This document shows, one piece after another, positions 3,164 through 46,300 of a stretch of DNA of 64,000 bases. The number at the start of each line of letters is the position of its first letter. Positions within the stretch are counted from its first letter, which is position 1. The notes beneath the pieces were generated by a model. The model was not told where the DNA came from, ran no database searches, and saw nothing but the letters and a program-made list of their open reading frames with translations. Source of the DNA: Candidatus Dormiibacterota bacterium (GTDB lineage Bacteria; Chloroflexota; Dormibacteria; Aeolococcales; Aeolococcaceae); NCBI GenBank assembly GCA_963718525.1, contig OY970355.1:2752001-2816000 (forward strand), in the 5' to 3' direction. Made by a program: the position numbers and the translations under genes.

Positions 3164-5143
3164 CTAAAGGTGAATGCCTCGCATCAGCATCCCGAGGGCG
3201 TACGCCTCTGGCGTAACCGGCTGCTCGCCGGGGTCATTGTCCCCATGCGACTGTGACGCATTGTCTGGAAGCATCTGGAATGCGCCGGCCATGATCAGTT
3301 GATGGACGTTGGGCGCAATGGCGTGCACGAGTTCACCGAATTTCCCAACCCGTGTCGACACCTCGTGGGGTCGCTTGATGAGCGCCTCGATCACCATATC
3401 CGCAGCCTCATCGGAGCTGATCGTCGGGAAATTCTTGTACATCCCGGTGGGCGCGATCATCGGCGTGCGCACCAACGGCATGTGAATCGTCGTGACCGCG
3501 ATGCCCTCCCCCGCAACCTCCGGCGCGAAGCACCGCGAGAACGCATCCAGCGCGTTCTTGCTCGCGACATACGCCGCAAAACGTGGTGGATACGCCTGTC
3601 CCCCAATGGACGTGATATTGACGATGTGCCCGTCCTGGCGCTCGCGCATTCCCGAGATCACAGCCATGATCAACGCGATCGCGCCGAAGTAATTCAGCTT
3701 CATCGTCCGCTCGAAATCGTGGAAGCGATCGAGCGAGTCGAGAACGGAGCGCCTGATCGACCGCCCGGCGTTGTTGATGAGCACGTCGACGCGGCCGTGA
3801 TCGGCGATCACACGCTCGATGAGGTGCGTGCACGCATCGTGGTCGCTGAGGTCGGTCGGATACATATATGCCCTGCCCCCGCCGCGCTCGACCTCGGCGC
3901 GCACCTCCTCGAGTTGTTCCTCGCGCCGGGCAACGCCGATGATCGTCGCTCCCGACGCCGCAAGGTGTTTGCACACGGCCCGTCCGATGCCACTCGAAGC
4001 GCCGGTGATGACCACGACCTTGCCACTGACGACGCGACGCACGTTCGCGGGAGTCGGCAGTTGCGGGTCGAGATGTCGCTCCCAGTAGTCCCACACCTTC
4101 CACGCGTAATCGTGCAGCGGCGGGCAGGTCACCCCGCTGCCCGCGAGCGCGGCCTGCGCCTCGCTCGCGTCGAAGGTGGCCGGATAGTCCATGTAGGTAA
4201 ACGCCGCCTCGGGGATGCCCAGACGCGACAGGGCCTGCTGGCGCATGCGCTGCACGGCGGGCAACGACCCGATTGCCGACAGTCCGCCGGGAAGCATGCG
4301 TGCCATGCGCCGGTCGATGCGCAGCGCGAATTCCGGAGCGTGCGCGGCTCTGCAGAAGGTGTTGAGCGTGTCGCCGAGCGACAGCGGCGCAGGGTCGACG
4401 ATGTGAAACGCGCGACCGTCGAGACCCTCGAGGTGCGCGATGTGGTCGATCGCTTTCGCGACAAAGTCGACTGGGACAAGGTTGAACGGGCCGCCCTCGG
4501 GGCCGATGAACGGCGCCCACTGCGGGAAGGCGTCGCGCATCTGCTGGATGAGCTTGAACGCGTAATACGGACCGTCGACGCGATCCGCCTCGCCGGTCTC
4601 CGACGAGCCGATGACCATACCGGGGCGGTAGACGCGCCAGGGCACCGTGGCCTCGGTGCGCACGATGTGCTCGGCCTCGTGCTTTGTCTTGTAGTAGGGG
4701 TGGTCGAGCTCCTGGCCCTCGTCGAACATCGCCTCGGTGAAGGACCCCTTGTACCGCCCGGCGACGGCAATCGAGCTCACCAAATGGAGGCAGCCGGCGC
4801 CGATCTCATTCGCGAGGCCGACGACGTTGCGCGTGCCGGTGACATTGGCGCGCTCCGTCTCGTCGGCCGGCGCCGTCAGGTCGTAGATGGCCGCGAGATG
4901 GAACACCTGACCGCCACGGAGCTGCTCGCGATCATCGACGGCCAGGGCAAGGCCGGGCTCGCCGAGATCACCGATCAGCGCATGCAGCCGTTTGCCGCCT
5001 GGATCGAGACGCTCGCGGAGCGCGGCATATCGGGCGCGTGAACCGGGACGCACCAGCACGAAGACGTTGTCGCCTCTCGCGAGGAGCAGCGGCACGAGGT
5101 GCCGGCCGATGAACCCGGTCGCCCCCGTGATGAAGTACGTCAC
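3164..5143 (-). CDS. Two-domain SDR oxidoreductase (fatty acyl-CoA reductase-like)
   Basis: N-terminal extended SDR (TGATGFIG, YxxxK) fused to a classical SDR (TGASSGIG, NNAGRS, YVASK). Confidence 0.85.
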   Translation of the reverse strand: MTYFITGATGFIGRHLVPLLLARGDNVFVLVRPGSRARYAALRERLDPGGKRLHALIGDLGEPGLALAVDDREQLRGGQVFHLAAIYDLTAPADETERANVTGTRNVVGLANEIGAGCLHLVSSIAVAGRYKGSFTEAMFDEGQELDHPYYKTKHEAEHIVRTEATVPWRVYRPGMVIGSSETGEADRVDGPYYAFKLIQQMRDAFPQWAPFIGPEGGPFNLVPVDFVAKAIDHIAHLEGLDGRAFHIVDPAPLSLGDTLNTFCRAAHAPEFALRIDRRMARMLPGGLSAIGSLPAVQRMRQQALSRLGIPEAAFTYMDYPATFDASEAQAALAGSGVTCPPLHDYAWKVWDYWERHLDPQLPTPANVRRVVSGKVVVITGASSGIGRAVCKHLAASGATIIGVARREEQLEEVRAEVERGGGRAYMYPTDLSDHDACTHLIERVIADHGRVDVLINNAGRSIRRSVLDSLDRFHDFERTMKLNYFGAIALIMAVISGMRERQDGHIVNITSIGGQAYPPRFAAYVASKNALDAFSRCFAPEVAGEGIAVTTIHMPLVRTPMIAPTGMYKNFPTISSDEAADMVIEALIKRPHEVSTRVGKFGELVHAIAPNVHQLIMAGAFQMLPDNASQSHGDNDPGEQPVTPEAYALGMLMRGIHL

Positions 5144-37794: not shown

Positions 37795-39045
37795 GTGCCG
37801 AGTCCCATCGCCGAGACCCTGGCAGTGCTGCTCCTCGCCGGGACGTTGGCATGCGCCATCGGGCGCCCGCGCGGATTGCCGGAAGCGGTTGTTGCGGTTC
37901 CTGCCGCCGGTCTGCTGCTGGTGCTCGGTGTCCTGCCGCTCGGGCAAGCTGGTACTGAAGCCGGCGGGCTTGGACCGACCATCGGCTTTCTCGCGGCCGT
38001 GCTCGCCCTCGCCAATCTCTGTGATCGCCACGGACTGTTTGAGGCTGCGGGATCGTGGATGGCCGCCGGCTCCGGCGGAAGACCGGTTTCCTTGCTCGTC
38101 CTCGTCTTTGCCGCGGCCAGCGTCGTCACCGCGGTGCTGAGCCTCGACGCGACTGTCGTGTTGCTCACACCGGTCGTGTTTGCGACCGTTGCGCGGCTCC
38201 GCCTCCGGGCAAAGCCGCACGTATACGCGTGCACGCATCTCGCGAACTCCGCGTCGCTGTTGCTGCCAGTCTCGAACCTCACCAACTTGCTGGCATTCGG
38301 CGCGAGTGGTCTATCGTTCGCTCGATTCGGAGCAACCATGGCACTCCCGTGGCTGGCCGCCATCGGCGTCGAATGGTTGGTGTTTCGCCGTTTCTTTGCT
38401 GGCGACCTGGTTGGCCGCGGTACTGCCCGCGATATCAAGCCGCTTCCGGTACCAGCGTTCGCGGCCGTCGTGGTTGCGCTCACGCTCGTCGGCTTCTTCG
38501 TCACGTCGGCCTTCAATGTCAGCCCGGCATTCGCGGCGCTCGCCGGCGCACTGGTCCTTGCCGCACCTGCAATTGCGAGCCGGAAGACGAGTCTCCGGGC
38601 CATTGCGATGTCGATCGACATCCCATTTCTCGCGTTCGTGCTGGCACTCGGGCTGATCGTGAAGGCAATCTCGCTGCACGGCCTGGGCTCGCTCGTGGCC
38701 CACGTCGTTCCGGGAGGTGCCGGCCTCGGTTCGCTGCTGCTCATCGCTGTCATCGCAGCCGTGCTCGCGAACGTGATCAACAATCTGCCGGCGGCGCTGT
38801 TGCTCATCCCTGCAGTCTCGGGGGCAGGCGCAGGCCCCGTGCTCGCCGTGCTCATCGGCGTCAACACCGGACCCAACCTCACCTATGTGGGCTCGCTGGC
38901 CACATTGCTCTGGCGGCGGGTGCTCATCCGCCGCGGCGAGGAGTTGCCGATCTCCGAATTCATCCGCCTCGGCGCCCTCACGGTGCCGCCAGTGCTCGTG
39001 GCCGCGACCGTCGCGCTGTGGATTTCGCTGCGATTGGTGGGTTAA
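37795..39045 (+). CDS. ArsB/NhaD-family (ion transporter superfamily) permease
   Basis: SLDATVVLLTPV, LPVSNLTNLL, INNLPA, NLTYVGSLATLLW. Confidence 0.85.
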   Translation: MPSPIAETLAVLLLAGTLACAIGRPRGLPEAVVAVPAAGLLLVLGVLPLGQAGTEAGGLGPTIGFLAAVLALANLCDRHGLFEAAGSWMAAGSGGRPVSLLVLVFAAASVVTAVLSLDATVVLLTPVVFATVARLRLRAKPHVYACTHLANSASLLLPVSNLTNLLAFGASGLSFARFGATMALPWLAAIGVEWLVFRRFFAGDLVGRGTARDIKPLPVPAFAAVVVALTLVGFFVTSAFNVSPAFAALAGALVLAAPAIASRKTSLRAIAMSIDIPFLAFVLALGLIVKAISLHGLGSLVAHVVPGGAGLGSLLLIAVIAAVLANVINNLPAALLLIPAVSGAGAGPVLAVLIGVNTGPNLTYVGSLATLLWRRVLIRRGEELPISEFIRLGALTVPPVLVAATVALWISLRLVG

Positions 39046-39609
39046 TGTCGCCCATGAACATCGTCATCTGGATCGTCGAGGGAACCTGGGAAGGTTGCGT
39101 CGACGCGGCGCTCGCGCACTTTCCGGCAGATGCACACTTCACGCTCCTGCACGTGACGCCTTCGGACGTTACGGAGGCAGCGGGCGCGGCGAGCGCCGGC
39201 CTCTTCGGGCGCGCGTTCGCAGGGCGGAAACCAAGCCAACGCTACGACGATATCGCCGACGACGAGGCCTCAGAGTTGCTCGCCGCGGCCGCGCGGCGGG
39301 TTGGGCAACCCGACGTTGAGTTGATCAGTCGACGCGGTCGCATCGAACGCGAGGTGGTAGACGCCGTCGCTGAAGCGGTCGATGTTCTCGTGGTTGCGCG
39401 TGACGGCGATCACTCGCGGCTCGGACCAAAGAGCCTCGGTCACGCAACCCGCTTCGTGGTCGACCATGCCCCCTGCGCTGTGCTCCTGGTCTGGCCGGAC
39501 GAGAACTCCGGGCATCGAGTCGATACCCCCGCCGAAGCACGGTCGGCCTCGAGGGCACGGACCGCCCCCGAAGCACAATCCACCGCCGCACGAGCGCCGC
39601 GACCGCTGA
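39045..39609 (+). pseudogene. Universal stress protein with an apparent frameshift near 39504
   Basis: USP motif SLGHATRFVVDHAPCAVLLVWP. The frame then runs on into the convergent gene, while the +1 frame gives a Pro/His tail and a stop at 39609. Confidence 0.65.
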
Positions 39610-39653
39610 CCCTTGCCGGGCGCCTTCGGAACCGGGTTCGGGCGCAGGGCGGT

Positions 39654-41042
39654 CTATTGCCGCAACCCGGCGACCGAGCGAACCCAGGTCTGGGCACCGA
39701 TCTGCATCGCGTCCCAAGGGCTGCCGAGCGGCGGTGTGTACGAGAGGTCGAGGTCGTTGAGCGACTCGACCGACATCTCGTTGTAGATCGCGGTTGCGGC
39801 GATGTCGATGCGCTTCGCCACCTCGGCGTGCTGGTGGCCGAAGAGCTGCACGCCAAGCAGCCTGCCGGTCCGCCGGTCGCCGGTCCACCGCATGGCGATC
39901 CGATGCGAGCCGGGGTAGTACGCCTTGTGGTCGTCGGCTTCGGACGCGACCGTCACCGGGTCGAAGCCGGCGCTCGCGGCCTCGTGATCGCGCAATCCCG
40001 TCCGCGCAGCGGCCATGTCGAAGATCTTCACGACCTGGGTTCCGAGGCTGCCGGCGAACTCTCGGCTGCCCCCGAGTGCGTTCTCACCGGCGAGGCGTCC
40101 TTGCTTGTGGGCGGTCGTACCAAGCGGAACATATGTCGCTCCGAGCAAACGATGGTGAGTCACCACGCAGTCGCCTGCCGCGAAGATATCCGGCAGGTTG
40201 GTGCGCATGGTCCGGTCGACATCGATCGCCCCTCGGATTCCCAGCCGGGCACCGGCACGTTCGGCCAGGGCAACGTCGGGTCGCACCCCCGCGAACACCA
40301 GAACGATGTCGGCGTCTCGCTGCAACGGCACGCCCTCGCGCGACATGCCGTCGACGCGCAGTCGTGTTCCGTGCTCATTGCGCGTGATGCGACGCACGAC
40401 GGTGTCCGTCACGATCTCCACCCCGTGTGCCCGTAGCTCGGCCGCCACGGTGGCTCCCAGGTCGGCGTCGACCGTCGGCAGCACCTGGGGAAGCTGTTCG
40501 ACCTGGGTCACGTCGAGGCCGCGAACGGTCAGGGCGTCAGCCATCTCGAGGCCGAGGTAGCCGGCGCCGATGATCACGGCAGTCCTTGGGGCAGCCGCAG
40601 TCAGAGTGCTCATGACCCCGAAGGTGTCCCCCATCGAATGCACGACGTGGACGCCGTCATCGGGGCCGAGATGATCGAGCCCGTCGATCGGCGGCCGTAC
40701 CGGAAGGGCGCCGGTGCCGATCACCAGGGCGTCGTACTTGATGACACTCGAAGTTCCGGCCGCGTCTCGGACCTGCACCTCGTGTGCGCCCGGATCGATG
40801 CGTTCCGCCGTCGTCCGCAGATGGAGACGCATGCCGGTCGCCTCCAGGTCCGCGATGCTGCGGTGCGCCAGGCTCCGCCAGTCGGGCACCTCGCCCGACA
40901 CGTGGTACGGAATACCGCAAATGGAAAAGTTCGGGTAGTCGTCAGCGACGATGACATCCACATCGGCTTCTGCGGCAAGCTCGCGGGCGCGCAGCGCCGC
41001 GCTGATGCCTGCATCGCTGCCGCCGATGGCGACGAGACGCAT
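39654..41042 (-). CDS. FAD-dependent pyridine nucleotide-disulfide oxidoreductase (CoA-disulfide reductase/NADH oxidase family)
   Basis: GGSDAG, single-Cys FSICGIPY, GAGYLG, DLDLSYTPP. Confidence 0.88.
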   Translation of the reverse strand: MRLVAIGGSDAGISAALRARELAAEADVDVIVADDYPNFSICGIPYHVSGEVPDWRSLAHRSIADLEATGMRLHLRTTAERIDPGAHEVQVRDAAGTSSVIKYDALVIGTGALPVRPPIDGLDHLGPDDGVHVVHSMGDTFGVMSTLTAAAPRTAVIIGAGYLGLEMADALTVRGLDVTQVEQLPQVLPTVDADLGATVAAELRAHGVEIVTDTVVRRITRNEHGTRLRVDGMSREGVPLQRDADIVLVFAGVRPDVALAERAGARLGIRGAIDVDRTMRTNLPDIFAAGDCVVTHHRLLGATYVPLGTTAHKQGRLAGENALGGSREFAGSLGTQVVKIFDMAAARTGLRDHEAASAGFDPVTVASEADDHKAYYPGSHRIAMRWTGDRRTGRLLGVQLFGHQHAEVAKRIDIAATAIYNEMSVESLNDLDLSYTPPLGSPWDAMQIGAQTWVRSVAGLRQ

Positions 41043-41048
41043 TGCGGC

Positions 41049-41543
41049 TCAGGCGCTCAATGCGTCGAAGGCGTCGGCACTCCCTTCGGGAACGGTTGCT
41101 GACGAAGCGCAGCAGTCGCTGGTTGGCTCAGCGGATGCCGTGGTTGCACAACACCCTTCCGTGCCTGTCGCGTCGCTTACGGGAGCATCAGCAAGCACCG
41201 TGTACACCTCCCACCGGGTATCTGCTCCGGTCACCCAGACCTTGTCCTGTAGAGCATGACAGCACGTGATGCCGTCCTCGACATCGGTCCGAAGCCCTTC
41301 CGCCGCCAGGCGCCGTGTTGCGCTCACAACCTCATCAGCCGTGCCCACCTCCACGCCGAGATGATTCAAGGTCCCAGCCTGCGCCGGGTTCTCGAAGAGC
41401 ACCAGCTTCAAGGGCGGGTCCGCGACCGCGAAGTTGGCGTATCCAGGGCGCCGCTTTGCCGGCTCGGTCCCAAAGAGCTTCGAGTAGAAGCTGACAGCCT
41501 CATCGAGATGGCTCACATTCAGCGCGAGCTGCACCCGGCCCAT
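41049..41543 (-). CDS. arsI: ArsI/CadI-family VOC metalloenzyme (C-As lyase-like)
   Basis: QLALNV, AKRRPGYANF, LNHLGVEV, TCCHALQDKVWV, WEVY. Confidence 0.85.
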   Translation of the reverse strand: MGRVQLALNVSHLDEAVSFYSKLFGTEPAKRRPGYANFAVADPPLKLVLFENPAQAGTLNHLGVEVGTADEVVSATRRLAAEGLRTDVEDGITCCHALQDKVWVTGADTRWEVYTVLADAPVSDATGTEGCCATTASAEPTSDCCASSATVPEGSADAFDALSA

Positions 41544-41544
41544 C

Positions 41545-41604
41545 TCAGCAGTCGCAGTCGCAGTCGCAGTCGCCGGTGCCGTCGCAGCCGCAATCACAAA
41601 TCAT
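41545..41604 (-). CDS. 19-aa Cys/Asp-rich peptide MICDCGCDGTGDCDCDCDC
   Basis: AGGAGG SD 10 nt upstream; the stop lies one base before the arsI ATG (TGA-G-ATG); 7 Cys and 6 Asp. Confidence 0.7.
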   Translation of the reverse strand: MICDCGCDGTGDCDCDCDC

Positions 41605-41620
41605 GGTGACCAGACCTCCT

Positions 41621-41679
41621 ATCGATGACCGTCGATTGAACGAATCGCATCCTAGCGTGTTCCATCGAAGACTGTCAAT
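41621..41679. promoter_or_regulatory. Two ArsR-box-like dyads in the divergent ars promoter
   Basis: ATCGA-TGACCG-TCGAT (41621-41636) and ATCGA-AGACTG-TCAAT (41664-41679); TAGAAT -10 at 41683-41688. Confidence 0.6.
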
Positions 41680-41694
41680 GGGTAGAATGGGAGG

Positions 41695-42204
41695 ATGGAG
41701 ATGCGGGCCAACGCCATCGCAACCGACGTCGAAGTTCGGCCCTTTCGCGACGATGACTGGCCGGCGGTATCTGCCATCTACGCACAGGGGATCGCCACCG
41801 GGAACGCCACCTTCGAGACCGAGGTCCCCGGATTTGAACGATGGTCGGCAGCGCATGCACCCGAGCACCGTTTTGTGGCGGTTCGCGACGGCGAGATCGT
41901 CGGCTGGGTGGCCGCCGGTCCTGTCTCCGACCGTTGCGCATACGCGGGCGTGCTCGAGCACAGCGTCTATGTGGGTGCGCGAGTTCGTGGGCAGGGTGTT
42001 GGCCGCCGATTGCTTGAGGCCCTGCTCGCGAGTGCCGATGCAACCGGCATCTGGACGGTGCAGAGCGGGATCTTCCCGGAGAATGTCGCGAGTGTTGAGC
42101 TGCATCGGCGCTGCGGATTTCGCGTGGTCGGCACTCGCGAACGCATCGGACAGCTCGATGGTGTATGGCGGGATGTGCTGCTCATCGAGCGTCGCAAGCC
42201 GTGA
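41695..42204 (+). CDS. GNAT N-acetyltransferase (phosphinothricin acetyltransferase/ArsN-like)
   Basis: IATGNATFET, EHSVYV, RGQGVG, FPENVAS, WRDV. Confidence 0.85.
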   Translation: MEMRANAIATDVEVRPFRDDDWPAVSAIYAQGIATGNATFETEVPGFERWSAAHAPEHRFVAVRDGEIVGWVAAGPVSDRCAYAGVLEHSVYVGARVRGQGVGRRLLEALLASADATGIWTVQSGIFPENVASVELHRRCGFRVVGTRERIGQLDGVWRDVLLIERRKP

Positions 42205-42554
42205 GCGCTGCCACCAAGTCCGCACTGGCGCCGCTGCGTGTGAAGGGATGCTGCCAGCCGGTTGCGCCGCCGCTTCCTGACGCTCGAGCCGACGAGCTCG
42301 CCGCACTCTGCAAGGCACTCGGCGACCCCACCCGGATTCAGATCCTGAACATTCTCGCGAAAGCCAGCGAGCCGGTCTGCGTCTGTGACTTCACCGCCGC
42401 CTTCGAGCTCGGCCAGCCGACCATCAGCCATCACCTGGCCACCCTCCGAGAAGCGGGCATCGTGACGAGCTTCAAGCGCGGGATCTGGGCGTTCTACCGT
42501 CTCAACCCCGCTATGTCAGCCGCAGCGCGGGCGGCGGTTTCGCTGGTCGGGTAG
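42201..42554 (+). CDS. arsR: ArsR/SmtB metalloregulator
   Basis: KALGDPTR, CVC box, QPTISHHL and an N-terminal CC; the GTG overlaps the GNAT stop. Confidence 0.9.
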   Translation: MSAATKSALAPLRVKGCCQPVAPPLPDARADELAALCKALGDPTRIQILNILAKASEPVCVCDFTAAFELGQPTISHHLATLREAGIVTSFKRGIWAFYRLNPAMSAAARAAVSLVG

Positions 42555-42631
42555 GCGACGCGTTCGCTCGCGCGCGCTTGATCGGCGCGGCGGCAGGCGG
42601 TCCGGCGGGGTTCCGCTGGTAGGGTGAGAAC

Positions 42632-43372
42632 GTGCCCTCCGCCCAATCCGACGCGCTCGCAATCGACGGTCTCATCAATCTCCGAGATCTTGGTGGCTTG
42701 CCGACCTCGTCAGGTGCCAGGACGCTCCGCGGCCGCCTGTTACGGAGTGAATCGCCGCACACCCTAAGTGACGCGGGTTTGCGCGAGCTGCTCGATCTCG
42801 GTATCGGCGCCGTCGTCGATCTGCGTACCACATCGGAACGCGAGAAGCGCCCGAGCCCGCTCGCCGAAGCTGGGGTGCTGACCTCGCACACTCCGATCTT
42901 CACCGACGACGATGACTACCCCGATCACCTCGCCACCGCAGCCGAGGTCTACTGCTGGTGGTTCCGCGAGCGTCGCGACGGCGTCGCAGCCGCGATGGCT
43001 GCGCTCGCCGACGCGCCATCCGCTCCCATCCTTGTGCACTGTCACGCCGGCAAGGACCGCACCGGCGTGATCGTCGCACTCGTGCTGCAACTCGCCGGGG
43101 TCAGCATCGACCTGATCGCAGACGACTACGCCATGAGCGGTGTCCAGCTGGCCGACATGCTCGCTCGTGATCGCGTGAGCGCCGTGGAACGCGGGATGGA
43201 CCCGGTACGCGTCGAGCGGCTTTTCACCGTGCGTCGTGAGGCGATGGTGCAGACCATGGAGTGCGTCGATGCGGAGCACGGCGGCGCCGTATCGTTACTC
43301 CGCGGGATCGGCCTCGACGGCGCCCGCGTGGAGCGCCTGAAGAATCTCCTGCTCAGCCCCACGTGGCCATAG
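42632..43372 (+). CDS. Protein tyrosine/serine phosphatase (IphP/MptpB-like)
   Basis: NLRDLGG, DLRT, HCHAGKDRTG P-loop, DY. Confidence 0.9.
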   Translation: MPSAQSDALAIDGLINLRDLGGLPTSSGARTLRGRLLRSESPHTLSDAGLRELLDLGIGAVVDLRTTSEREKRPSPLAEAGVLTSHTPIFTDDDDYPDHLATAAEVYCWWFRERRDGVAAAMAALADAPSAPILVHCHAGKDRTGVIVALVLQLAGVSIDLIADDYAMSGVQLADMLARDRVSAVERGMDPVRVERLFTVRREAMVQTMECVDAEHGGAVSLLRGIGLDGARVERLKNLLLSPTWP

Positions 43373-43415
43373 CGCGACAGTACGATTCGCTCACGGTGAG
43401 TCCGAGGACTGCGCG

Positions 43416-43760
43416 ATGAGATACATGCTGCTGTTCGCTGGAGACCAGGCGGCGTTCAATGCCATGTCGCCCGCAGATGCACAGGACATGTACGCGAAGA
43501 TCGGTGACTGGTGGGCGCACCACTCTTCGACTGGGGCCCTCGTGAGTGGCGAGCAACTCGAGCCACCGAACACCGCGAAGACGGTGCGTCACGAGCGAGA
43601 CGATCGCCTCGTCATCGACGGTCCCTTCATGGAGACGAAGGAGCACATCGGCGGGTTCGCCATTGTCGAGGTCTCCTCAATCGACGAGGCGTTGGATCTC
43701 GCGCGAACGTGGCCAGCGGGCGGTGCTGTGGAAGTCCGCAGGCTGATCGAGGCGCACTAG
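43416..43760 (+). CDS. YciI/DGPF family protein
   Basis: MRYMLL, DGPFMETKEHIGG, VEVR. Confidence 0.9.
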   Translation: MRYMLLFAGDQAAFNAMSPADAQDMYAKIGDWWAHHSSTGALVSGEQLEPPNTAKTVRHERDDRLVIDGPFMETKEHIGGFAIVEVSSIDEALDLARTWPAGGAVEVRRLIEAH

Positions 43761-43785
43761 CTCAGCTGCCAGACGGCACCTTCGG

Positions 43786-44232
43786 TCACTGCGATGCGGT
43801 TGCGAGGAACCCGGGACAGATGCGCCCCACGAAGGCGGGCATCTGCCAGGAGCTGCCCAGTTCGAGGGCGGCGTGGTATCCCGACGCGACGGTCACCACG
43901 CTGTCGCCGATCCTGTCTCCGGTGCACCCTTCAGCAGAGATCGAATAGCGCCCCGGTGACAGAGCGATGCTCACCGCCACTGGTCGGCCGGTCCAGTCTT
44001 TGTGAGCGGCGAGGCTGCCGTCGCCCTCATTGGTCACGAAGACACGGCAGCCGTCGACATCCGGCGGGCACGCGGGAACCGTGACTATCAGACCTGTGAA
44101 CCCGGGAGTTCCCGCTCGCGGCCACAAGGCGACGATCGCCATGACAGCGACGCCGAGCAGGAGCCCGGCGGTGATCACGCCATTCCGGCGGGTGCGGGTC
44201 GCGCCCGTTGGCCTGATACCGGTCGCATTCAC
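43786..44232 (-). CDS. Hypothetical membrane-anchored/secreted protein
   Basis: N-terminal hydrophobic helix, 4 Cys and an LSPGRYSI beta-sandwich-like motif. Confidence 0.5.
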   Translation of the reverse strand: MNATGIRPTGATRTRRNGVITAGLLLGVAVMAIVALWPRAGTPGFTGLIVTVPACPPDVDGCRVFVTNEGDGSLAAHKDWTGRPVAVSIALSPGRYSISAEGCTGDRIGDSVVTVASGYHAALELGSSWQMPAFVGRICPGFLATASQ

Positions 44233-44461
44233 TCCGCAATCATGGTCCCGTCGCCGATTCCCAGGGTGCTCGTCACCGAATAGGGCAACCGCAGCAGGTC
44301 AGCAACGCCTCTCGAACGCGAGCATCGGGTGTCCTCCTAGTTAAGACCCAGGACTGGCGCATCCCTCACACCGTTGAGCAGCGTATTCTGAAGGTGCCTT
44401 GGGATGTTGCATCCAGCGCGGACTGAGCGCACTTCGGACGAGCTGAGGCGAAGGTTGTCCC

Positions 44462-45316
44462 ATGGCAAATGCTGGGAGACTGAGGACCGTTGCGGCGATC
44501 ACAGCCGTCTTCATCGCAGCCTGCGCCTCGGTGACACCACCTGCGGGCTCTTCGTCGAACAGGTCGCCAACGCGCGCAGCATCTGTGCACTCTCGCGCGA
44601 CGCGCGAATCAGCCGCGTCCGAACCATTCGCCAAAACGATCTCCCGCACCTTCGATGACGGGTTCACTCGCACCGCGTCCCCGTCAACCCTCCCTTTGCC
44701 GCTCGCCGCGCTCGCACGCGCCACCTCCAAAGACTTAACCAAGACGATCTACCTCACCTTCGACGATGGCCCCAATCTGACCTGGACTCCAGAAATTCTC
44801 TCCCTCCTGCAGGAATACGGTGCGCATGCGAGTTTCTTCGTCGTCGGCGAGAATGCCAAAAGGTGGCCCGGGTTGGTGGAGCAAGAAGCTCGGGACGGCG
44901 ATACCGTCGGCGACCACACTTGGTCACACCCGGCTCTCACCACCCTGTCAGCGAGTGCAGTCTACGTCGAGCTCGGCCGGGACCGGAACCTGGTCACGAC
45001 GCTGACCGGAGAGACGCCGACCTTGTGGCGACCTCCCTATGAAGCTTTCAACTCAACAGTGGTCGGTATTGCATCCGTGTTGGGGATGAAGATGCAGCTG
45101 TGGAGCGTGGATACCGGTGATTGGCAGCTTCCCGGGACCGAGGTCATCGTGTTGCGCGTAATGGCCGCGCTCCACAACGGGATGGTCGTGTTGTTGCACG
45201 ACGGGGGCGGCGACACCAGGAGTGAGACGGTGGCCGCAGTGGCCATCTTGATACCCGAGTTGGAGGCGGCAGGGTACCGGCTCGCAGCGCTGCCGCCGGC
45301 GGCGATTGGCCATTAG
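44462..45316 (+). CDS. Polysaccharide deacetylase (NodB/CE4), probable lipoprotein
   Basis: TFDDGP, HTWSH, RPPY, DW, LLHD. Confidence 0.9.
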   Translation: MANAGRLRTVAAITAVFIAACASVTPPAGSSSNRSPTRAASVHSRATRESAASEPFAKTISRTFDDGFTRTASPSTLPLPLAALARATSKDLTKTIYLTFDDGPNLTWTPEILSLLQEYGAHASFFVVGENAKRWPGLVEQEARDGDTVGDHTWSHPALTTLSASAVYVELGRDRNLVTTLTGETPTLWRPPYEAFNSTVVGIASVLGMKMQLWSVDTGDWQLPGTEVIVLRVMAALHNGMVVLLHDGGGDTRSETVAAVAILIPELEAAGYRLAALPPAAIGH

Positions 45317-45493
45317 GGCGACATCTGGCGATTGCAACGTCCCCTGGGGAGCGCTCGTCCGAGCAAGAGCGCCCACCAGCCGGTCTGCCCAGAGGACTTA
45401 CGACGAAGAGACCCTGGCAAGTGAGCGCCGGTTGATGGAGCCTACCGAGGAGAGACGCTGATAGGCGGATTGTGGGGGTATGCGCAGGGCGGC

Positions 45494-45664
45494 ATGATCA
45501 TTTGTCCGCGCTGCGCATCGAAGCGAGTGGTCCTGCTCACGTTTCCTGAGGAGGAATCGATCCCTCGCCAGGTTGTGCCGCGTCCAATCGCACGATGCGC
45601 TGACTGCGGGCACCGGCTCACGCCCACGGAGATCACCAGTCAGGAGAAGCCGTCCCTCAACTAG
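45494..45664 (+). CDS. Small zinc-ribbon protein (56 aa)
   Basis: CPRC...CADCGH. Confidence 0.5.
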   Translation: MIICPRCASKRVVLLTFPEEESIPRQVVPRPIARCADCGHRLTPTEITSQEKPSLN

Positions 45665-45763
45665 CTTTGAGCCCGGCGCCAGGAGGACCGCGACGCGTTG
45701 CTCGTGGCCGAGGCGGCTTGATTACTCACCCGGTAGCATCGAGACCAATCAGAGGTGAAGGGC

Positions 45764-46300
45764 GTGCGCAAAATCGTCGTGTACGAGTTGGTGTCCCTCG
45801 ACGGGGTTGCCGAGGACCCAGATAGTTTCATCGCCGAATGGGACGAGGCGATGGACGCCAACCTTGCGGCTGTGATCGAGAAACAGGACACGGTCATTCT
45901 CGGCCGCCGTAGCTATGCCGAGTGGGCGCAGTTCTGGCCGAGCAGCCAGATCCAGCCATTCGCAACATTCATCAACGGGGTCACGAAGTATGTCGCGACG
46001 TCCAGGCCCCTTGACAGAGATTGGGCCAATGCGACGGTTCTCGACGGCGGGTTGGTCGAATTCGTTCGGGATCTCAAGCAGCAGCGCGGAGGCGATGTCG
46101 GGGTCCACGCAAGTATCTCGGTCGCGAAGGCGCTGCTCGCGGCCGACGTTGTCGACGAACTCAGGCTCGTGATAGCGCCGCGGATCGCCGGCCGCGGACG
46201 ACAACTCCTCGACGGGTTGCCGTCGATTCAGCTCGAGTTGATCCGAAGCGAGATCTCACCGACTGGCTATCTGCTCGTCGACTATCGCGTTACTCGTTAG
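45764..46300 (+). CDS. Dihydrofolate reductase/RibD C-terminal family protein
   Basis: VSLDG, LGRRSY, KYVATS, VDELRL. Confidence 0.85.
   Translation: MRKIVVYELVSLDGVAEDPDSFIAEWDEAMDANLAAVIEKQDTVILGRRSYAEWAQFWPSSQIQPFATFINGVTKYVATSRPLDRDWANATVLDGGLVEFVRDLKQQRGGDVGVHASISVAKALLAADVVDELRLVIAPRIAGRGRQLLDGLPSIQLELIRSEISPTGYLLVDYRVTR

Follow-up and report, generated by a model that had tools for sequence, protein, structure and literature searches.

What is encoded by the short, Cys- and Asp-rich reading frame that separates a ribosome-binding site from the arsI gene in a Candidatus Dormiibacterota bacterium? The frame lies within a 64,000-nucleotide stretch of the genome (assembly GCA_963718525.1, contig OY970355.1, positions 2,752,001 to 2,816,000), referred to here as the window, whose own numbering is used throughout. 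On the minus strand, a Shine-Dalgarno (SD) sequence, AGGAGG (41620-41615), is followed by a spacer of 10 nucleotides (nt; 41614-41605) and by an ATG (41604-41602), which opens a micro-open reading frame (micro-ORF) of 19 codons plus TGA (41545-41604). The encoded peptide, MICDCGCDGTGDCDCDCDC, contains 7 Cys and 6 Asp residues and ends in four Asp-Cys units. The stop codon (TGA, 41547-41545) is separated by a single base (41544) from the arsI ATG (41543-41541). A preliminary description of the locus had reported this arrangement, and every detail of it proved correct. Judged from the reading frame, its conservation and its codon pattern, the micro-ORF is very probably a real gene coupled to arsI.

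A Cys-rich micro-ORF probably coupled to arsI

Reading frames of this kind are rare in the genome. The 3.34-Mb sequence was scanned for SD-led ORFs of 10-45 amino acids (aa) that contain 5 or more Cys and consist of Cys to 28% or more; the micro-ORF is one of two matches. Among 16,125 small ORFs (12-30 aa) of the same genome, only two contain 7 Cys and none contains 7 Cys within 19 aa; the micro-ORF itself is not in this list because its frame is open upstream. Whole-genome small-ORF scans revealed no second ORF of the same kind. Because Cys-rich, SD-led ORFs are rare in the genome and the ORF is conserved in relatives, its occurrence ahead of arsI is not attributable to chance.

Conservation upstream of arsI homologues, which the preliminary description had proposed as a check, was analysed in two sets of loci. 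A search for ArsI with one genome per species provided the best 80 of 298 relatives (L001-L080). The layout of the window is found in all of L001-L027, whose ArsI proteins are 73-87% identical to that of the window and whose titles, three odd ones aside, name Dormibacterota. In these loci, an SD sequence kept as (T)AGGAG(G) is followed 5-10 nt on by the start of a Cys-rich ORF of 15-25 codons (with 2 Cys only in L021), the stop of which lies 1-2 nt before the arsI start. The micro-ORF is found in none of the 53 actinobacterial loci (L028-L080, Actinomycetota). In a metagenome scan (best 80 of 313 relatives, L235-L314), 34 of the 80 loci carry the micro-ORF, and its stop directly abuts the arsI ATG in two. 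A pooled set was assembled from the window, L001-L080 and L235-L314, together with seven loci that whole-genome searches had provided. It excludes L082, which comes from an unpublished genome, L081, which belongs to the genome under study, the duplicates L089 (of L019) and L090 (of L014), and weak partial matches. Of the 168 arsI loci in this set, 64 possess the ORF; the distinct peptides number 56, range in length from 15 to 27 aa (median 18.5) and contain 2-10 Cys (median 7). Their composition is dominated by Cys (41%), Asp (22%) and Gly (15%), followed by Thr (5%) and Pro (5%). Hydrophobic and aromatic residues are almost absent; in about 1000 residues, Tyr occurs twice and Trp once.

Some individual loci deserve mention. 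L005, L017 and L019 are titled Saccharimonadales or Acidiferrales, yet carry a Dormibacteria-type locus, and the upstream DNA of L019 is identical to that of L089, which stems from a genome in the same genus as the window (G296); the three titles are probably wrong. Two metagenome contigs, L259 (400-527) and L267 (130-264), retain only a 3' remnant of the micro-ORF. In L259, which is probably a chimera, the adjoining stretch presumably is a sequencing adapter. In L267, the upstream DNA is unrelated, and a 1-nt difference brings the remnant in frame with arsI.

The arrangement of translation signals differs sharply between loci with and without the ORF. In the window, none of the 4-mers GGAG, GAGG or AGGA occurs at positions -17 to -4 of the arsI ATG. 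In the same interval, an SD-like 4-mer is present in 1 of 28 loci with the ORF versus 52 of 53 without, and in 4 of 64 versus 100 of 104 loci in the pooled set. The suggestion that arsI, devoid of an SD of its own, is translationally coupled to the preceding frame is thus supported, coupling being the natural reading of these counts. The distance from the micro-ORF stop to the arsI start is 1 nt in 58 of 64 loci, 2 nt in four and 0 nt in two, and UGA is the stop in nearly all of them. In relatives of the same family that lack the ORF (L083 and L084), the SD lies directly ahead of arsI and the flanks are similar, so the ORF looks inserted between the SD and the enzyme gene. Translation of arsI would accordingly depend on termination and reinitiation at the junction.

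Codon usage also points to a translated frame. When 28 members are aligned by codons, all of them share the first Cys (TGT in 16 and TGC in 12), the central Gly is kept in 26 through four different codons, and the next Thr is kept in 22. Pairwise differences at codon positions 1, 2 and 3 amount to 1344, 1221 and 2163, respectively. When the nucleotide sequences are aligned without regard to frame, each of the 40 internal gap runs has a length divisible by 3. The share of synonymous changes among differing codons is 0.256 in the ORF frame versus 0.179 and 0.215 in the other two. The peptide consensus is MxCDCxCDCDGTCDCDCxC, and two types are recognizable: M-x-C-D-C-G-C-D-C-x-G-T-C-D-C-x-C-x-C, and M-D-C-x-C-P-[DE]-G-T-C-P-C-[DE]-C-G-C, which is encoded without a hexamer repeat. 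Selection on the micro-ORF at the amino acid level is supported by this conservation.

The micro-ORF is confined to, or close to, one Dormibacteria-type arsI clade. Of 401 genomes sampled from the GTDB phylum of the window, 13 encode an ArsI that scores above the cut-off (a tally that includes three unpublished genomes). Within the GTDB family of the window, the micro-ORF occurs in G296, G360, G400 and G083 and not in G164 and G224; a further occurrence, in the unpublished G173, is left out of the count and supports none of the conclusions. The other classes of the phylum lack the micro-ORF in this sample. Samples of 401 genomes around one Bacillota and one Pseudomonadota genome yielded ArsI matches (E <= 1e-25) in 4 and 27 genomes, respectively, the latter tally including one unpublished genome that was omitted from the reading of loci. 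The micro-ORF occurs in none of the 35 loci read, 33 from these two samples and two from Mycolicibacterium (L315 and L316), in which the Cys codons upstream of arsI belong to the C-terminus of a co-oriented arsR. A quick tree was built from 160 distinct ArsI rows; one part of it, comprising 68 rows (SH-aLRT, a Shimodaira-Hasegawa-like approximate likelihood-ratio test, 88), contains 59 of the 61 ORF-bearing rows, and presence of the ORF changes 5 times versus 48.7 times in shuffles. L088 (from G083) and L273 carry a typical micro-ORF while their ArsI groups among actinobacterial-type sequences on this tree; either recombination behind the ORF or limited resolution of the tree could account for the two outliers.

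A proposed metallothionein-like product and its alternatives

In our reading, an ArsR-controlled operon begins with the micro-ORF, which is translated into a metallothionein-like, thiolate-binding micropeptide. For this reading as a whole, the case for and the case against are about evenly matched. In this genome, the operon would comprise the micro-ORF, arsI and a gene for a coenzyme A (CoA)-disulfide-reductase-like oxidoreductase. Departure of the repressor from two operator-like palindromes would allow transcription from a TTGACA/TAGGAT promoter. Ribosomes would load at AGGAGG, read the 19 codons, terminate at UGA and restart 1 nt further on, at the AUG of the SD-less arsI. Peptide and ArsI would thus be produced together, and under induction only. 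The predicted peptide is acidic, consists nearly entirely of Cys, Asp and Gly in its 15-27 residues, and features C-x-C spacing and a conserved central G-T. If it has a binding function, a proposition that we consider evenly balanced, its thiolates most likely would bind trivalent arsenicals or soft metals. It may buffer or pass on the As(III) released by ArsI, hold the MAs(III) substrate, or shield the Cys pair of ArsI; a partnership with either ArsI or the oxidoreductase is likewise conjectural. A more specific version is possible and more tentative, namely that the peptide is a natural, ribosomally made phytochelatin mimic, the smallest known gene-encoded bacterial metallothionein-like peptide, made in fixed proportion with a C-As lyase as its dedicated thiolate partner. 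Such a mimic would accept the As(III) that ArsI releases or offer the organoarsenical substrate to it, and the disulfide reductase encoded alongside may keep the peptide reduced.

The Asp-Cys run of the window corresponds to a tandem array of the hexamer GCAGTC (plus strand), which spans 41548-41592 in 7.5 copies with 82% matches. A near-identical contig from a sequencing run, X2 (41140-42226, differing in 2 other letters), lacks 6 bases at 41548, equivalent to one Asp-Cys unit; the difference shows an in-frame length polymorphism of the repeat. A second run, X1, labelled RNA-Seq and probably DNA, provided a 2061-nt contig from a relative about 91% alike, which spans 39667-41688 and is uninformative on expression.

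Several points weigh against the view of a selected, metal-binding peptide. The hexamer array is prone to slippage, as the loss of one unit in the near-identical contig illustrates, and part of the Asp-Cys repeat may be neutral. In the ORF frame, synonymous changes are in only modest excess. L021 retains a coupled ORF with start, frame and stop-start junction intact, and this ORF is degenerate, with only 2 Cys; L015 has 5 Cys and an SD-like GGAGG within its ORF. The ORF is absent from 104 of the 168 pooled arsI loci, so ArsI in general does not need it. Moreover, the pooled loci are kin, and the metagenome rows probably repeat some of those from metagenome-assembled genomes (MAGs), so that the counts describe one clade rather than independent events. 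The peptides of L019 (25 aa) and L023 (20 aa) matched no Pfam family, metallothioneins included, at E values up to 1. A role of the peptide as a substitute for a lost Cys-rich tail of ArsI was ruled out, as ArsI proteins whose tails have two Cys-Cys pairs are encoded in ORF-bearing and ORF-less loci alike.

Two alternatives survive best, and both are unlikely. In the first, the codons matter and the peptide is irrelevant: Cys codons would slow ribosomes when charged tRNA-Cys is scarce, for instance when arsenicals drain thiols, and thereby tune ArsI via the junction. A precedent is provided by mycobacteria, in which polycysteine short ORFs, unannotated first cistrons rich in Cys codons, act as cysteine-responsive attenuators that affect the translation of the next gene, according to 10.1101/834739. 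Seven of the 19 codons of the window ORF specify Cys, and a Cys-Cys pair is found in 23 of the 56 peptides, in 22 of them at the very end, beside the arsI start. The mycobacterial ORFs, however, are described in the same source as leaderless, with consecutive Cys codons, as located before cysteine-metabolism genes, and as acting by the opening of an RNA duplex that covers the downstream ribosome-binding site. In contrast, the micro-ORF is led by an SD 10 nt before its ATG, and the predicted -10 hexamer ends 44 nt upstream of that ATG. Consecutive Cys codons are missing from the window ORF, and three or more in a row occur in none of the 56 peptides. Downstream lie arsI, which has no SD to unmask, and the oxidoreductase gene, rather than genes of cysteine metabolism. 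The leader RNA has no match in Rfam, and its fold is no better than that of shuffled sequences (z = +1.28; 180 of 200 shuffles fold at least as well). Furthermore, a ribosome stalled at the junction would reduce ArsI, not increase it, the Gly, Thr and Asp positions are conserved alongside Cys, and no second ORF of this kind precedes cysteine genes in the genome. The preliminary description had allowed for either a chelator or chaperone or a Cys-responsive leader. The former is favoured over the latter because Gly and Thr are kept through synonymous changes, three consecutive Cys are never found, the leader lacks structure, and no cysteine-metabolism gene lies downstream; binding of metals or metalloids remains a prediction.

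In the second, equally improbable alternative, the ORF merely ferries ribosomes to the SD-less arsI. Its Cys and Asp residues would be a by-product of the expansion of a GACTGC repeat, and the peptide would be degraded and without a role. The overlap of the window ORF with the hexamer array, the one-unit length variant and the 2-Cys ORF of L021 all suit this explanation, as does the fact that the junction distance is the most constant feature of the loci. A plain coupling ORF, however, would drift freely. The second peptide type keeps the Cys pattern (C-x-C-P-[DE]-G-T-C-P-C...) without the hexamer repeat, Cys makes up 41% of the 56 peptides whereas it is rare in random small ORFs of the genome, and synonymous codon changes leave the Cys, Gly and Thr columns intact.

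A third alternative, that the nascent peptide itself senses arsenicals, is very unlikely. Trivalent arsenicals would bind vicinal thiols of the growing chain and alter termination or reinitiation, adding a layer to ArsR control. The density of Cys up to the stop, the fixed stop-start distance and the near-constant use of UGA would be indirectly consistent with such a device. No precedent was found in the literature searched on ArsI or C-As lyase leaders and small Cys-rich peptides. Furthermore, the peptides vary from 15 to 27 aa, with units gained and lost; such variability would be uncommon for arrest peptides, which have to be accommodated in the exit tunnel. ArsR control already provides inducibility. 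Finally, it is extremely improbable that there is no separate gene and that ArsI starts at GTG 41597 with an Ala/Thr-rich N-terminal extension, the Cys frame being accidental. In the window, no stop codon interrupts the arsI frame over the 19 codons that precede its ATG, and this GTG is the only start codon among them; it lies, however, 17 nt from the SD. In L003 and L025, the frame is devoid of start codons, and elsewhere their placement is inconsistent; in L239 and L244, a stop codon in the arsI frame directly precedes the ATG. Alignments with solved ArsI chains and with the family model begin at the Met at 41543, and substitutions fit the Cys frame best. An upstream start through the Ala-Thr frame, which the preliminary description had named as fatal to its proposal, therefore finds no support.

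Comparison with known Cys-rich peptides

In a broad, compositional sense, the products of the micro-ORF resemble metallothioneins, since they are of low molecular mass, rich in Cys arranged as C-x-C or C-C, and poor in aromatic residues. They do not belong to the established Pfam metallothionein families, PF02069 (SmtA type) included, as judged from the members of L019 and L023; the 19-mer of the window is below the 20-aa minimum of the search. The only PF02069 match in the genome (G000:C1:2541880-2541990; L231:1498-1659) was rejected as spurious, as it scores 21.9 bits, under the cut-off of 33, and is out of frame within a trmD-like ORF.

SmtA is about three times longer than the micro-ORF peptide. 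The smtB-smtA divergon of cyanobacteria consists of an ArsR/SmtB-family repressor gene divergent from the gene for a Cys-rich metal-binding product, with an operator-promoter between the two, as described in PMC7387436. A divergon of comparable design is seen here, with a divergent ArsR-family gene and a putative intergenic promoter with palindromes to which ArsR would bind. The two systems differ in several respects: SmtA is a PF02069 protein; the micropeptide gene is tied to that of an enzyme; and in the window, arsN1 is interposed between the promoter region and arsR.

Closer in size are the short copper metallothioneins of fungi (Neurospora crassa type), which have about 25 aa and about 7 Cys in C-x-C spacing, are rich in Gly, Ser and Asp, and lack aromatic residues. 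These occur in eukaryotes, are encoded by monocistronic, copper-regulated genes and have no coupling to an enzyme. The likeness in size and Cys spacing derives from their general description rather than from aligned sequences, and no homology is claimed.

The name phytochelatin-like, given in the preliminary description, is apt as a chemical analogy only. Thiol and carboxylate groups alternate along the chain, as in phytochelatins and in EC20. The latter, according to PMC4611968, is an artificial, directly translated (Glu-Cys)n analogue that chelates metals in bacteria, including in an engineered arsenic operon. Natural phytochelatins, in contrast, are gamma-linked and made by an enzyme, whereas the micro-ORF would specify a ribosomal, alpha-linked, Asp-based peptide interrupted by Gly, Thr or Pro, which is not a phytochelatin. 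The phytochelatin synthase model PF05023 has no match in the genome, but controls were equally silent and the result is uninformative. A Pfam search for gshA in this genome (88.9% complete) found none, and MshC-like matches were below the cut-off. These results are too thin for the low-molecular-weight thiol of the organism to be named.

ArsD is a folded arsenic metallochaperone of about 120 aa that serves the ArsA ATPase. Like ArsD, the micropeptide would be a small product of an ars operon that binds As(III) by Cys thiolates for a partner protein; the two are unrelated in sequence, and the partner of ArsD is ArsA. Cys/His-rich tails of SlyD-type FKBP isomerases have a metal-binding role. The identical motif C-D-C-x-G-x-C-D-C is found in such tails and in the peptides, as an appendage of a folded protein in the former and as the whole product in the latter.

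A DNA-pattern scan for C-D-C-[DG]-G-x-C-D-C identified at least 120 stretches, of which 80 loci were read. Among these, the motif outside Dormibacteria mostly forms the C-terminal tail of larger proteins from unrelated phyla, such as FKBP_C isomerases (L156:3651-4205 and L138:5465-6070), a DUF1292 protein (L127:434-820) and an Fe-S-biogenesis protein (L173:1074-1427). By analogy only, these contexts fit a metal-binding role. In L189 (2882-3280, minus strand), a MAG of Emcibacteraceae, an arsR-family gene is followed after 12 nt by an ORF of 34 aa with 10 Cys and the sequence C-D-C-D-G-G-C-D-C. A cation-efflux (CDF) gene lies about 730 nt off on the same strand (4010-4945); an ORF of 171 aa on the opposite strand is situated in between. 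The 34-aa ORF looks like an independent mini-metallothionein candidate.

In titles and abstract openings of the literature on ArsI or C-As lyase operons, on metallothioneins and small ORFs, and on Dormibacteria and arsenic, no Cys-rich micro-ORF before arsI is described; the short-ORF tables of 10.1101/834739 are outside this coverage. A survey of arsenic genes, PMC9582695, mentions Dormibacteria and, in its accessible portion, not a feature of this kind.

Organization and significance of the operon

The arsI gene (41049-41543, minus strand) encodes a protein of 164 aa that is a member of the ArsI/CadI C-As lyase family by profile and conserved residues, and is a predicted enzyme. It scores 185 bits against NCBIfam NF041414 (ArsI_CadI_VOC; cut-off 116) and aligns to the solved ArsI chains 5dfg and 5c4p (E 3e-39). 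Conserved residues include the N-terminal Gln, His in HLGVEV, the Cys pair in CCHA and Glu in WEVY; according to PMC6138428, the corresponding Gln, His and Glu are Fe(II) ligands, and the Cys residues form a vicinal pair. Downstream, the gene for the CoA-disulfide-reductase-like pyridine-nucleotide-disulfide oxidoreductase (39654-41042, minus strand) starts with an ATG 6 nt past the arsI stop and has no SD. The unit thus reads as a chain of closely spaced cistrons headed by the micro-ORF. In related genomes, the oxidoreductase gene comes after arsI in no more than 13 of 27 loci, so its product cannot be an obligate partner. Neither arsA nor arsD was seen beside the operon, and arsC was not seen within 38000-46000.

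Upstream of the micro-ORF, a putative sigma-70-like promoter on the minus strand (41649-41678) consists of TTGACA (41678-41673), an 18-nt spacer and TAGGAT (41654-41649), with 10 of 12 matches. It is the sole promoter-like site within 39400-42000, where shuffled sequences contain 0.1 on average. An operator-like imperfect palindrome, CCATTGA-N6-TCGATGG (41662-41681, minus strand), overlaps the -35 hexamer; read by eye, it is a putative ArsR site. The same motif occupies the same place in L001-L027, and a similar form is present in actinobacterial loci. A perfect inverted repeat, ATCGA-N6-TCGAT (41621-41636, minus strand), also read by eye, is located between the -10 hexamer and the SD, which it abuts, and is likely to be a second ArsR operator. 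The genome has one other copy with this spacing, near 3172573. An inverted-repeat program reported nothing at its length threshold.

On the plus strand, the divergent genes begin with one for an ArsN1-like GNAT acetyltransferase (41695-42204, starting at 41695 or 41701; NF040503, 146.6 bits, under the cut-off of 170). Within 41683-41697, a -10-like TAGAAT ends 6 nt before the first ATG (41695), which is abutted by GGAGG; the arsN1-like mRNA may be leaderless, or the true start may be the ATG at 41701. Next is a gene for an ArsR/SmtB-family repressor (42201-42554, plus strand; the longest ORF starts at 42165). Its in-frame GTG at 42201 overlaps the TGA of arsN1 (GTGA, 42201-42204), so that, with the 6-nt arsI-oxidoreductase junction (41042-41051), the whole divergon seems to be built of coupled cistrons. 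An ArsR-family gene lies upstream on the opposite strand in 25 of 27 genome loci, directly adjacent in some, with arsN1 interposed in 15. A Y_phosphatase3 tyrosine-phosphatase-family gene with the motif HCHAGKDRTG (42632-43372, plus strand) follows arsR and occupies the same place in 8 of 27 related loci; the retained place suggests that it is arsenic-related.

Gene callers overlook the micro-ORF, as a 44-aa extended form of the L019 peptide has no match among called proteins in 5.8 billion clusters. If the peptide binds arsenicals, it would represent a new and very small class of bacterial metal(loid)-binding products. To our knowledge, it would also be the first case of such a peptide translationally tied to a detoxifying enzyme. 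Even if the peptide is inert, the locus provides a clean natural example of an SD shifted from an enzyme gene to an inserted micro-ORF, and related loci with and without the insertion are at hand for comparison. Dormibacteria are abundant in peat and permafrost soils. Should the proposed function prove true, the micropeptide would offer a natural short tag for metal capture and would add a component to the organoarsenical cycle in these bacteria.

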